A stretch of 64,000 nucleotides of DNA, filler included, from Stramenopiles sp. TOSAG23-2 (GCA_900128395.1; 28 parts of 28 records of this genome joined end to end with filler, not necessarily neighbours in it), one strand, 5' to 3'; numbered from the whole stretch's first letter, positions 18,723 to 25,292 are shown. Translations and numbers: made by a program. The notes: generated from the sequence alone by a model not told the origin.

Positions 18723-20057
18723 CTATTTCATAGCAACAAAGATATTGCCATAAACTGGTTTTCCAGCTTGTTTTCTTAATATTTCTTTTTCTTTCCATTT
18801 CAATAAATTGAATTTATATTCCTTTAGTAAATTTACAATGTAATTTACATGATGTTTAAATCTACCTGTTTTTTGTAATTGATAGGGTGGAATTGGTGTA
18901 AGACCATTTATATTTTGAGATGATAATGATGAAGATATCAATAATGCTTCAGTGGAAAAAACAAATATACCACCATCAGCCAGACATTTATATACTTTAT
19001 CAAAAACACAATCCAACTCTTTAAAATATACGAATACATCGCAACTAATGCATAAATCAATGGGTATACTAGATAGTTTATTAGTATTTAGTTGCTCATC
19101 TAATATTGATTCAATATTTGATACGTAACATGAATCGTATATATTCTTGCGTTGTTTTGCCTTGTCTATCATACCTTTGCTTAAATCAATACCAATTAAT
19201 TTTTTACATATATGCTTAAATTGTATGCCACTGAGACCTGTGCCACATCCTAAATCTACTCCGACTTGAAAAAAAAGTGGCTTTGAAATTCGAACTTCAC
19301 AAACATTTACTAATAAATTCAAACACAATGTAGGGGTTTGATATGACAATGATGCTAAACTTTCATCAAAGTAATTTGAATATTTATCATACAATTTTTC
19401 AATATATTTTAAAGGTGGAGGTGGAGCATTTGCTGCATCATCAGCCGATTTTGCATTCTTGATAGTATTATTACCACCACTACTACTACCTTTATTATTA
19501 ATACAATGTAATTTTAAAGTTTCTATACGGTAATTCCAATATTGTTCATCGTTTTCCATATCGTATATTTTACATTGTTGATAATTTTCTATAGCTTTTA
19601 AATAGTCTCCTGTATTTTTATAATGGGATCCAAGCCAATAATATACATCACGTTTTTCTTTATCTGATTTGACATGGTTTAAACATATTTTTAAAGTCTC
19701 TATAGCTTGATTTTCACTATGTATTTTTCCATAATAAAAAGCTAATGCTCTATAATTTCTTAAATAATGATGATTATCATTATTATTATTGCAGTCATTT
19801 GTACTTGGTAATAAAGATATGGATTTTTCTGTACATTTTATTGCGTCTTCCAGTTTGCCTAATTTACAATAAACTCTACCAAGCGTGAAATGAAATTGCC
19901 ATCGAGCTGCGTTGCATTTGATTGCATAGTCACAACATCTTTTTGCGTTGGTATATTCGCATTTATTATAATATTCATTTGCTAAAACAATAAATTTTTT
20001 ACCCAGCCCATGTTGTGTCGTAGTATTTGAATCATACGTAGATATTAAAGATTCCAT
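18723..20057 (-). CDS. TPR-repeat class I SAM methyltransferase (COG4976-like)
   Basis: N-terminal TPRs; LYDKYSNYFDESL..LSYQTP, VDLGCGTGLSG, GIDLSKGM, DVFVYF, FVFSTE, TGRFKH. Confidence 0.9.
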   Translation of the reverse strand: MESLISTYDSNTTTQHGLGKKFIVLANEYYNKCEYTNAKRCCDYAIKCNAARWQFHFTLGRVYCKLGKLEDAIKCTEKSISLLPSTNDCNNNNDNHHYLRNYRALAFYYGKIHSENQAIETLKICLNHVKSDKEKRDVYYWLGSHYKNTGDYLKAIENYQQCKIYDMENDEQYWNYRIETLKLHCINNKGSSSGGNNTIKNAKSADDAANAPPPPLKYIEKLYDKYSNYFDESLASLSYQTPTLCLNLLVNVCEVRISKPLFFQVGVDLGCGTGLSGIQFKHICKKLIGIDLSKGMIDKAKQRKNIYDSCYVSNIESILDEQLNTNKLSSIPIDLCISCDVFVYFKELDCVFDKVYKCLADGGIFVFSTEALLISSSLSSQNINGLTPIPPYQLQKTGRFKHHVNYIVNLLKEYKFNLLKWKEKEILRKQAGKPVYGNIFVAMK

Positions 20058-21355
20058 GTGTTTACTATATATTATTTACGTAATTTAATGATTTAATGTG
20101 CTACTATACTGCAACTACTATAAGATGGTAGATGGTAGCAAAGTAATCTTAACCTTTAACTTTTTATTTTTATTTATTTCTTTTGGTATATGTATTATTG
20201 AAATTATATATACAGGTATATATTTTTTTGGAGATGACCACCAGCAGAGAGAGAAGAAGAGGAGAGTTTTGGTCGCTCGACTCCTTTTCCTAGAGTCAAT
20301 AGTGTGTATTGTTATTTTAAAATAGCATCTAAATAGCACTATAGAATAGGAATAGCATTATAAACGAAAAACTACCTTTTCCTAGAGTCAATAGTGTGTA
20401 TTGTTATTTTAAAATAGCATCTAAATAGCACTATAGAATAGGAATAGCATTATAAACGAAAAACTACATGTATATAAGGTATTTTTATGCGAAGATTCGA
20501 CGTTTGAGTAAATAATACAGGAATGGTCGGGGACCCACTTTTGGTATCCTTTTCGATAGTCTAAAATTCAAATGGAATCCCTATATATTAATATATTAAT
20601 GCCAAAAAAATTATAAACAAATCCAGAAATTGAATACATCTATTATTGAAAAGAACTAATAGGATTACACAATGTTGTATATTGAAAGAATCNNNNNNNN
20701 NNNNNNNNNNNNNNNNNNNNNNNNNNNNNNNNNNNNTTAATTAATTAANNNNNNNNNNNNNNNNNNNNNNNNNNNNNNNNNNNNNNNNNNNNATATTACT
20801 TTAACACGAGAAGTGTAAAAATATTATAACTTAGATTTTAACCATCACTTTGTAAAGTATTTTTATTTTTTAATTCAAGAAGAATTAAATATTTCTTTGC
20901 ACGGCGGTCACTTCTTGTACGGTATTCACCTGGTAATTGGCAGATACATAGACATACCATTGAATCATATATTTTGTACTTAAATCCTATTAAAACACTA
21001 CGGAAAATGCACTACTATAATCTTTTTTTTTTTTTCAGTTTTTTGTGTCAAGAAGAATTTTTTTTAGGATAAATTGATTGCACAAAAATAACACTACACA
21101 GTATGGTAAAATCAATATACGTTTTACAAATTTAACAAAAATATATTTTATAATCAATATATATCGTTATATATGGATAGAAATGTGTACCAAATGAATG
21201 CACCACCAACAAGATAATCAACATGATCGTTTGAATAAGAAATATATATAGTAGCATCTCCTTCGAATTGATACAGATCATCGTATTGCATCATTTGAAT
21301 ATTATTTATTTATTATATTATATTTTAAACATTATTACTACTTTTTTTTTCGACC

Positions 21356-22405: not shown

Positions 22406-22606
22406 ATAGTTGAGAGTGTGTATATGTAGAAATGTGAGGTGATAAAGAGGGTTGGTGGGGTATGTCACGTATAAAATATGTTTTTTGTAAAAGAAAATTG
22501 TGTTTTTTTTTTTATTAATTTTTTTAAAAAAATATAATGTTTAAAAAATCTAAGTTAAAATTGTAAATGATCTTCTTTTTATCTGAATAATATTCAAATT
22601 ATTCAA

Positions 22607-22927
22607 TGTTGTAAGTCAGGGAATACAACGACATTTGGAAACTCGAGGTGCAAGATTTTAGTATCAATATATAGCGTGGCCAGAAATGCAAGTCAAGATG
22701 GCCTTCATAAGTGTTGTAAGTCAGGGAATACAACGACATTTGGAAACTCGAGGTGCAAGATTAATGGTAGCTCTATGCTTATCTTATTGCTATGAACCTC
22801 GGTGCAAGATTCTAGTGTGGCCAGAAATGCAAGTCAAGATGGCCTTCATAAGTGTTGTAAGTCAGGGAATACAACGACATTTGGAAACTCGAGGTGCAAG
22901 ATAATATGCTATGCTTATCTTATTGCT
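22607..22927. repeat. Compound tandem repeat: three identical 50-bp units plus two 36-bp units
   Basis: tgttgtaagtcagggaatacaacgacatttggaaactcgaggtgcaagat at 22607, 22712 and 22853; gtggccagaaatgcaagtcaagatggccttcataag precedes copies 2 and 3. Confidence 0.9.
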
Positions 22928-23092: not shown

Positions 23093-25292
23093 TTTTTAGG
23101 CGGTGTAAGCGAAGAAATGCAACTGATTCGGCGCGTTGCACCAATTCGCAAAGGTAAGTTGTGGTTTCTGTATATCGTCTTATGAAATTGTACTAACATG
23201 ACTTGAACGCCATCGTGAACTTCATTTACATGTAGGAGTTGGAGTATTTTCCTTCATACACAAATCTATTCAGGAGTATTTAACAGCCGCAGAAGTCATT
23301 CGTACAGTAAAACATGCATGTGCAGAAACGTTAATGTCTTTAGATGAGTTCGAACTATTTGTAATTAAAATTGAAATCGTGAGAGCAAGAAACACAGAAG
23401 ATTATGATGAGGGCTCCCCACAACATTTCGATAACTTATTCCAAAATATAGGAAGAAACAAATTAGCAAATAAAATGGCAAAACAAATAATTAAGGATAT
23501 AACGAAAATGAAAAAGGACAGAATAGATAAGCGTAAGGTAGTTAACGAATACAGTAGAGACAAGAGGAGGGATAGCTATGCAAACATATTGGAAGCTGCT
23601 AAGCAAGCATCGTTTAAATTTAAATCAGTGGAACCAAATTTCGAAATGCAAGCGGGTACAAACACTAATAAAACAGAAGCAACTCAAAAATTGGTTGCTT
23701 ATAGTAGACGGCTTATTGATATGTATAATGCCATTGAACGTTCGCCGTTAAATAGAATATTTATTGGCGCTGAAGAAGCTATATTAGATTTTTTAGTTGA
23801 TTGTATGGTTGGTGAAGAATATACGATATCGCGTATGATCGATTTAGTCGCAAGAGTTGCTACTTACGGAAGGCCGTTTGGAATGGACCATCTAATATTG
23901 GTAGAGACAAATATACAAGATCTGTATACAACAAAACTGCCAAAGCGTGATGGTGCAGGGACGTTGTTGCACGAAGCAGCAAAATTTGGTAAGTTAATTG
24001 TTTTAAGATTTTGAATCATATTAATAGTAGAAACTAACATTCTTCTTTTATTGATGAATGTTGATAGGAAAACACAATGTAATCAAACAAGCAATGGTAT
24101 CTTTAAATAAATCATTGAAACATGTAGATACAAGTTATATAGGTAGATACAAGTATGTAAATATACAAGATGCTTGGGGGCGAACACCTCTTTTTGTAGC
24201 AGCGAAGGCAGGGCATGTGGAATGCGTCAAGGAATTAATAGAAGCTAAAGCTGATAAAATGATAAAATCCAAGTTAGCTACAGAAAAAATGAATATTCTT
24301 GTGTATGATGATGGAGATAGTCCGTTTTGCATAGAGGAGGTAAAGGGTAAAAAATTAACAGAAAAATCAGATAATATTACCTTTTCAAAGGAAAATTTGA
24401 AATTGACATTAAAACAAACTTGCGGGATCGCGCAAGTCATGGTACCTGATATGGCAGTTAATGTTGAAACGAACAATAGTGATGAAACTGATCAAACAGA
24501 GTTTACCTTTAGTGTTAATATATCATGTAATAATTGCGCAGCTGCCATAATGGTTGGATGGGCACCATCACCATCATGGGCATCGAATAGAAAGAATGAT
24601 ATGCTGAGGTCATTTAATCAGAATAATTCAGGAACAATGGCAGATCATTATTGCGTTGGTGTAATAGCAGGTAGTACAAATGCGGACCAAATATTTTACG
24701 GGGAGAATGTTTTATGGCCTGACGGAAATCGTATATTTGATTATACTTTAAAAGGAAATCATTCAGCAAAATTGTTTGATGAAGTTCCAATACATCATTC
24801 ACAATACTTGAATACAAATTGTAAACACACAATTTGTAGAATGGAAAATGATAGAAACGCAGAATTTGGTAAATTTAGCTTTATTGAGAAAATTGAAGAT
24901 GATATATCATCTAAAATTAAAGCACAAAAAGATGGTAAATTTGTAAAACAGTTGGAAGATTTAATAGGGAAAGATGCTATTTTGGACAAACAGAAGCTCA
25001 AATCTATATTTAATTCTCTTAACGTTGATTTGTCAGATATGGATATAAACGAAATTTTAACTGTTATCTGTAAAACTGATGAGATAAAATCATCAGACGT
25101 TATACAATATATCAAACATATAGAAAATAATGAGATGAAATTGCTTAAAGTGTTTTTTAGAAAAGAAAAATATAGCAAGTGGTTGAATGATCTGAAAACC
25201 CCAGTTATTAGAAGGGAAAAATTAAAAGAGCTATGCAAACCTGGAAAGCTAAAAGAAAGTACTTTCAGTGCCATGTTTGATATCTTTGGCAC
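23093..25292 (+). CDS. NACHT(WHD)-ankyrin-(SPRY-like)-(EF-hand-like) protein, spliced, partial at both ends
   Basis: Introns 23154-23235 and 23989-24067 (GTAAGT, ACTAAC, TAG) join three exons in frame, giving FSFIHKSIQEYLTA, TLLHEAAKFGKHNVIK and GRTPLFVAAKAGHVECVKELIEAKAD. Confidence 0.8.

Follow-up and report, generated by a model that had tools for sequence, protein, structure and literature searches.

Does the single 2.2-kb contig at positions 23093-25292 of the DNA analysed here, a 64-kb window from Stramenopiles sp. TOSAG23-2, encode part of a NOD-like receptor (NLR)-like protein? The first-pass annotation had proposed that two introns join the open frames of this region into a gene of a microbial eukaryote. 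In the spliced protein, a winged-helix signature of the NACHT type would be followed by two ankyrin repeats, a SPRY-like beta region and an EF-hand pair. Proteins that combine NACHT with ankyrin repeats are familiar from fungi, bacteria and animals; innate-immunity-type proteins of the STAND class (signal transduction ATPases with numerous domains) are poorly charted in uncultured marine protists. We found a spliced gene with the winged-helix-type signature and two ankyrin repeats, as proposed, but neither a SPRY domain nor an EF-hand pair was confirmed. The interpretation that we favour, though we put it slightly short of an even chance, is that the fragment belongs to a STAND-type (NACHT-clade) switch whose phosphate-binding loop (P-loop) lies off the contig. 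The label NLR-like is plausible but unproven, and the evidence base of one 2.2-kb fragment and three relatives makes it a lead and not a result.

The region is exactly one entire 2,200-bp contig with N runs and TTAATTAATTAA linkers on both sides; the coordinates of its features are collected in Table 1. The three exons lie in three different frames, and each frame is closed by a stop within the first few codons of the intron. When the exons are joined by the two GT-AG introns, 679 residues can be read without a stop, open at both contig ends. Two relatives, L001 and L002, both contigs from marine metagenomes, share these intron sites: the position and phase of intron 1 recur in L002, and those of intron 2 in L001. 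The spliced frames of both are open as well. Both L002 (FLGENGEAIEMIRRVAPIQKG) and a distant protein homologue, P0004, are colinear with exon 1, and P0004 is continuous across both splice-junction sites without an intron at either.

Nucleotide comparison separated exons from introns. Between the window and L002, 110 of 151 columns were identical over the first 150 nt of exon 2 (2 gap columns) and 228 of 301 over its last 300 nt (2 gap columns). These conserved blocks of exon 2 are thus 73-76% identical, against 54-65% for the introns (intron 1 compared with L002, 52/97 columns with 31 gap columns; intron 2 compared with L001, 54/83 columns with 19 gap columns). The start of exon 3 was less tidy, with 139 of 226 columns identical and 52 gap columns, because the inter-repeat ankyrin loop varies in length. 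The ratio of nonsynonymous to synonymous substitution rates (dN/dS) was 0.16 for the pair L001 and L002; for the window and L002 it came to about 0.1-0.13 in the conserved blocks, where dS is saturated. A real, intron-containing gene under purifying selection, from an AT-rich marine microbial eukaryote, is represented on the contig by its middle and its C-terminal part.

The RNA data cover this gene sparsely. RNA contigs from four libraries matched exon sequence at 23267-23414, 23477-23656 and 24132-24282 with at least 99% identity. They did not confirm the introns: no spliced joint was found among the RNA contigs mapped, which covered no more than 3-6 of the 30 bins in each run and are uninformative on the uncovered parts. 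One 151-base oligo-dT RNA contig (run X5, depth 2) at 23903-24053 continues unspliced for 65 bases into intron 2, and may reflect pre-mRNA, a retained intron or DNA carried over. The lack of joints and this contig, unspliced across the intron-2 donor, would be compatible with a locus without a functional spliced gene, be it a pseudogene or a set of exons joined in another way. We consider such a locus very improbable, since it is opposed by introns conserved in position and phase, by spliced frames that are open in three loci, by a dN/dS well below 1, by the continuity of P0004 across both junctions, and by an ankyrin consensus that splicing restores. The comparative data outweigh the unspliced RNA contig, which was counted as weak evidence against splicing.

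The relatives of the gene are few. L001 and L002 were the two relatives among 434 pattern matches, and P0004 (1,555 aa) was the sole match among 743 candidates, aligning with exon 2 at a BLASTP E value of 3e-18 with 73/281 identities. When P0002, the protein of exon 2, was used alone against metagenome contigs, none of 328 stretches was a relative, and locus scans of viral contigs and of prokaryote genome contigs likewise gave 0 of 304 and 0 of 174 stretches. Residues 1130-1505 of P0004, used as a query, found only P0004 itself among 4,613 candidates. When exon 3 was searched against the representative library, ankyrin proteins dominated the result; the best stretches all fell in query residues 3-135, and the search is therefore uninformative on the C-terminal half. 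A word-based search with exon-3 residues 95-407, made among longer proteins only, scored 0 of 2,409 candidates. The gene belongs to a small, sparse protein family, known so far only from marine plankton data. Keyword literature searches did not turn up a description of the family, which does not by itself prove that there is none.

The link to NACHT proteins comes from a short motif in exon 2. The sequence F-S-F-I-H-K-S-x-Q-E-Y-L does not vary among the four family rows (window, L001, L002 and P0004), and FSFIHKSIQEYLTA is the sole match to this motif class in the six frames of the whole 64-kb window. The specificity of the motif was measured on 150 ankyrin-rich proteins (226,772 residues) taken from the library search with exon 3. 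A strict pattern, written beforehand, matched 4 proteins, and all 4 had NPHP3_N or NACHT. A looser pattern found the motif class in 13 of the 150 proteins; it was composed after seven P-loop-selected NACHT-ankyrin proteins had been viewed, and is partly fitted because these NACHT sequences had already been seen when it was written. NACHT or NPHP3_N was present at E<=0.01 in 13/13 carriers, above the Pfam cut-offs in 11 and at E<=1e-6 in 10. In three carriers, P0094, P0146 and P0068, the Pfam winged-helix models GPIID_WHD or HTH_TANC1 reached or overlapped the motif.

Every fourth of the 136 motif-less proteins served as a control (n=34). At E<=1e-6, a stricter threshold than was applied to some of the positives, NACHT or NPHP3_N was detected in 0/34, and nSTAND3, which belongs to a different STAND clade, in 3. 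In this test, 13/13 carriers and 0/34 controls had the domain, so that among ankyrin proteins the motif predicts a NACHT-clade P-loop well; the winged-helix-type signature of the first-pass annotation was borne out. In the seven proteins that were measured, the motif lies 274-341 aa past Walker A and 194-248 aa past Walker B (7/7). The family was also compared by hhalign with an alignment of 13 NACHT-ankyrin winged-helix sequences, which gave E 3.3e-4 and a probability of 38% over 22 columns, while the reversed control gave 0.04%. Against a motif-picked set of 4 sequences, the probability was 86%.

These data bear on whether the gene encodes just a common type of multidomain ankyrin protein that has no kinship with STAND NTPases and in which FSFIHKSIQEYL would be a convergent or chance helix-strand motif. 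The similarity is indeed restricted to the short motif, and no profile, PDB-sequence or fold search linked a flank to NACHT. However, the motif class occurred only in NACHT/NPHP3_N proteins among all the ankyrin-rich residues of the sample, it is strongly conserved in the family, and the order of motif, helical segment and ankyrin repeats is the same as in NACHT-ankyrin proteins. We therefore regard an unrelated ankyrin protein as improbable.

Several results weigh against a NACHT-clade switch, in addition to the fitted pattern, the unequal E-value thresholds and the RNA data described above. The profile similarity to NACHT winged-helix domains covers only about 22-27 columns around the motif. 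Only 24 residues of the contig's frame precede the motif, which leaves no room for a P-loop. In P0004, where the sequence continues further, G-x4-GK[ST] and also any GK[ST] are absent from all 1,555 residues, and a search for Walker B in a hydrophobic context gave no match. The 340 residues that precede the P0004 motif, where an NTPase domain would be expected, hold a Cys-rich, zinc-finger-like region instead. When the N-terminus of P0004 was compared by hhalign with an alignment of 7 NACHT/NPHP3_N sequences, the probability was 0.09%. PADLOC and NCBIfam likewise gave no NACHT, STAND or winged-helix domain (WHD) match in family members.

Other searches for the nucleotide-binding module were also negative. 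L002 extends 190 residues upstream of the motif, and is not expected to reach Walker B because Walker B lies 194-248 aa before the motif. A structure model of 182 of these upstream residues was all-helical, with a mean predicted local distance difference test (pLDDT) of 53.3, and Foldseek on this model found no fold match (best E 1.6). The D[GAS]hDE signature of Walker B, which is among the defining features of NACHT in Kibby et al. (2022), does not occur in the six frames of the window. Pfam found no NACHT (PF05729), NPHP3_N (PF24883) or other STAND model, at E up to 10, in P0002, P0003, P0004, P0158, P0155 or L002 exon 1, and neither GPIID_WHD nor HTH_TANC1 matched in the family. No NLR or STAND chain of the PDB was found by sequence with P0002, P0004, alignment A2 or a 25-residue motif peptide as queries. 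Some candidates were set aside. The N-terminus of P0004 had been taken by eye for the part of NACHT that follows Walker B, and was dropped on the hhalign value above and the lack of any Pfam match; a PADLOC match to PDC-M54A (12.6 bits) and the NCBIfam matches were at chance level.

The composition of P0004 raises another explanation, a descendant of NACHT-ankyrin proteins without a P-loop. In such a protein the NTPase would have been lost or displaced, and what is left would act as a binding platform of a scaffold or adaptor with no nucleotide switch. Such a protein would have kept the end of the winged helix together with the helical segment and ankyrin repeats, joined to lectin, Cys-rich and coiled-coil parts in P0004 or to the strand-rich region and the helical tail in the window. 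Besides the Cys-rich finger-like region, the part of P0004 upstream of its motif contains a Jacalin lectin domain (residues 753-887, E 1e-6) and a long stretch that is rich in Lys and Glu and resembles a coiled coil. There is no Walker A across the 1,277 residues before the motif, the Jacalin domain is the sole Pfam domain found in P0004, hhalign sees no similarity to a nucleotide-binding domain (NBD) in the N-terminus, and the motif and the blocks downstream of it are strongly conserved. The sequence of P0004, however, is one uninterrupted frame from a Met, with an odd tail rich in Cys at its end, and upstream exons may therefore be missing. A P-loop domain was present in 13/13 motif carriers checked, and the conservation of the His is hard to explain without a nucleotide. 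The loss of the P-loop is possible in our view, but on the unlikely side.

The WHD histidine of NLRs contacts ADP. If the gene encodes a STAND-type switch with its P-loop off the contig, as we favour, the fragment would run from the winged-helix end (FSFIHKSIQEYL, with the conserved His) through the charged linker and the helical segment to the two ankyrin repeats, the strand-rich region and the helical tail. At rest, ADP bound by a P-loop module further upstream would be held in contact with the winged-helix His, and the C-terminal arm of ankyrin repeats, strand-rich region and helical tail would serve as the sensor and the auto-inhibitory part. Ligand binding would then permit nucleotide exchange and the oligomerisation of some N-terminal effector. 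An immune or cell-death role is suggested purely by analogy with NACHT proteins elsewhere.

The closest known systems are the NACHT/NPHP3_N-ankyrin STAND proteins of our sample (P0027, P0034, P0043, P0059, P0089, P0102, P0112 and P0146), which are fungal-type, NLR-like and have HeLo, TIR or other N-termini. The contig gene has in common with them the motif h-x-H-x-[ST]-h-x-[EQ]-[YF]-[LF] and, after it, a helical stretch that leads into ankyrin repeats. In these proteins a P-loop can be detected 274-341 aa before the motif and there are 10-30 ankyrin repeats, whereas the contig gene has two clear repeats and its sequence starts 24 residues before the motif. It also differs from them in the linker of about 150 aa past the motif and in its orphan C-terminal half, and no profile-level similarity to them was found outside the motif.

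Animal NLRs of the NLRP3 type have an NBD, a first helical domain (HD1), a WHD and a second helical domain (HD2). Their order of WHD, HD2 and repeat sensor would fit the fragment; the limits of the NLRP3 NACHT subdomains follow the NLRP3 decamer preprint. The repeats of animal NLRs are, however, leucine-rich, whereas those of the contig gene are ankyrin repeats, and no sequence match to NLR chains of the PDB was found. Teleost NLR-B30.2, described in a zebrafish study (PMC4852459) as a NACHT protein with a C-terminal beta-sandwich recognition domain, would be a precedent for a beta-sandwich arm, but SPRY/B30.2 was not detected in the contig gene, where Atlas scores reached only 0.76-0.78. In STAND proteins of the TANC1/2 type, which have a P-loop, a winged helix, ankyrin repeats and tetratricopeptide repeats (TPR), the winged helix is likewise followed by ankyrin repeats. 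The Atlas TANC2 cluster with WHD_TANC1 scored 0.78, below the lead threshold, and HTH_TANC1 matched over the motif of the carrier P0068 but not in the family of the contig gene.

Should the upstream P-loop exist, the gene would represent an additional family of NACHT-ankyrin NLR-like receptors, from uncultured marine protists and marked by its unusual C-terminal arm. A true absence of the P-loop, at which P0004 hints, would make the gene a case of a STAND winged-helix/repeat module that survives without its ATPase.

Two ankyrin repeats follow the motif, as had been claimed. Across intron 2, the first reads GTLLHEAAKFG|KHNVIKQAMVSL, and its counterpart in P0004 matched designed ankyrin repeat proteins (DARPins) at E 2e-9. 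The second was above the Pfam cut-offs, with 29.6 bits for PF00023 (Ank; cut-off 21.1) at exon-3 residues 37-66 and 29.8 bits for PF12796 (Ank_2; cut-off 27.3); the Pfam ankyrin matches span exon-3 residues 30-66. Ahead of the repeats, the best-conserved block of the family reads PLNRIFIGAEEAILDF..DC...VARVAT.GRPFG...LPKRDG. The helical segment to which it belongs (23745-23960) had no profile match; from its position, we infer that it may be HD2-like or an ankyrin cap. In the linker that precedes it, a phmmer match of exon-2 residues 22-97 (23301-23528) to the BCL10 CARD (E 0.12, 15 bits) was taken as chance. These residues are poorly conserved in P0004.

The claim of a SPRY-like beta region was not upheld, as SPRY (PF00622) was not found at E<=1 on exon 3, nor at E<=10 on residues 95-265 alone. 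An AlphaFold2 single-sequence model had a pLDDT of 37.6, with values below 50 over residues 1-272, and was unusable for the strand-rich region. Atlas scored this region 0.78 for SPRY and 0.76 for Neuralized, both under the lead level. VIA-wide on the same model gave Z<=5.6 on the helical stretch only, so that the strand-rich part was barely probed.

The helical tail is possibly EF-hand-pair-like, on three weak but concordant leads that are each below the threshold of the tool. EF-hand_EFHB_C matched it with E 0.047 and 13.9 bits against a cut-off of 27. Atlas scored it 0.90 to an EF-hand cluster, with 146 shared features, fewer than the 170 typical of true family hits. VIA gave Z 5.0-5.6 over model residues 265-346 (pLDDT 52-70), with some EF-hand chains among the matches, values lower than those that the tool itself treats as noise in helical models. 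The 679-residue spliced protein contained no canonical 12-residue Ca-binding loop, as defined by a PROSITE-type pattern, and no match to the relaxed pattern D-x-[DNS]-x-[DNSTG]-x6-[DE]. The EF-hand pair of the first-pass annotation thus stays at the level of sub-threshold leads.

A broader history of the family may be imagined, although we consider it doubtful. An undescribed marine-protist family would have arisen from NACHT-ankyrin STAND proteins, its nucleotide-binding module lost or displaced by very large insertions, and the core of His motif, helical segment and ankyrin repeats would have been recombined with lineage-specific sensors. These would possibly be the Jacalin domain, Cys-rich fingers and coiled coil in one lineage, and the strand-rich region with an EF-hand-like, possibly Ca-responsive tail in the window gene.

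Table 1. Features of the contig at 23093-25292 in window coordinates.
Feature	Coordinates	Strand	Description
Exon 1	23093-23153	+	Partial, open at contig 5' end; encodes FLGGVSEEMQLIRRVAPIRK and first base of a Gly codon
Intron 1	23154-23235	+	82 nt; GTAAGT ... ACTAAC (23192-23197) ... TAG; phase 1
Exon 2	23236-23988	+	250 full codons (protein P0002)
Winged-helix end motif, NACHT-clade type	23247-23288	+	FSFIHKSIQEYLTA; conserved His; in exon 2, invariant in family
Charged linker	23289-23744	+	K/E/R/D-rich, about 150 residues; poorly conserved, length variable between homologues
Helical segment	23745-23960	+	PLNRIFIGAEEAILDFLVDCMVGE ... VARVAT.GRPFG ... LPKRDG; densest block of invariant columns in the family
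Ankyrin repeat 1	23958-24153	+	Interrupted by intron 2; consensus GTLLHEAAKFGKHNVIKQAM once spliced
Intron 2	23989-24067	+	79 nt; GTAAGT ... ACTAAC (24033-24038) ... TAG; phase 1
Exon 3	24068-25292	+	407 full codons (protein P0003); open at contig 3' end
Ankyrin repeat 2	24175-24267	+	Pfam Ank and Ank_2; PDB ankyrin and DARPin matches
Strand-rich orphan region	24295-24747	+	Formerly 'SPRY-like'; strands seen only in low-confidence model
Helical C-terminal region	24862-25290	+	EF-hand-pair-like at best; last helix cut by contig end

The window consists of 28 unlinked contigs, each of about 2.2 kb, placed in falling length order and separated by N44-TTAATTAATTAA-N44 linkers. Because 23093-25292 is a whole contig between linkers, its neighbours in the window are unlinked to it and give no genomic context, and findings that rely on neighbour genes across linkers are void. 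No relation to the ankyrin gene was found in the other 27 contigs of the window. The DNA is AT-rich, with a GC content of 0.24-0.375 per 2-kb window. Of the sampled words of the contig, a fraction of 0.83 was found in one small DNA run (X1), and at most 0.12 in the other runs, which included marine metagenome and metatranscriptome data. Near-identical pieces of the contig are present in marine plankton data, among them the metagenome runs X2-X4, from which we draw no further conclusion on habitat.

Other contigs of the window showed features of their own. In the unlinked preceding contig, a unit of about 50 bp (GTTGTAAGTCAGGGAATACAACGACATTTGGAAACTCGAGGTGCAAGAT) occurs three times at 22571-22904, inside a longer direct repeat that also contains GGCCAGAAATGCAAGTCAAGATGGCCTTCATAAGT. 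Elsewhere in the window, a unit of about 92 bp (CCTTTTCCTAGAGTCAATAGTGTGTATTGTTATTTTAAAATAGCATC...) is present in two tandem copies at 20284-20467. A single open frame on the minus strand, with long homopolymer runs of Asn, Thr and Ser, extends across the entire unlinked contig at 25393-27590, and is consistent with an AT-rich eukaryote. A 450-aa open frame at 18723-20075, also on the minus strand, has a glycine-rich VDLGCGTGLSG stretch that resembles by eye an S-adenosylmethionine (SAM)-methyltransferase motif after a TPR-like N-terminus, and may be a candidate for such an enzyme.

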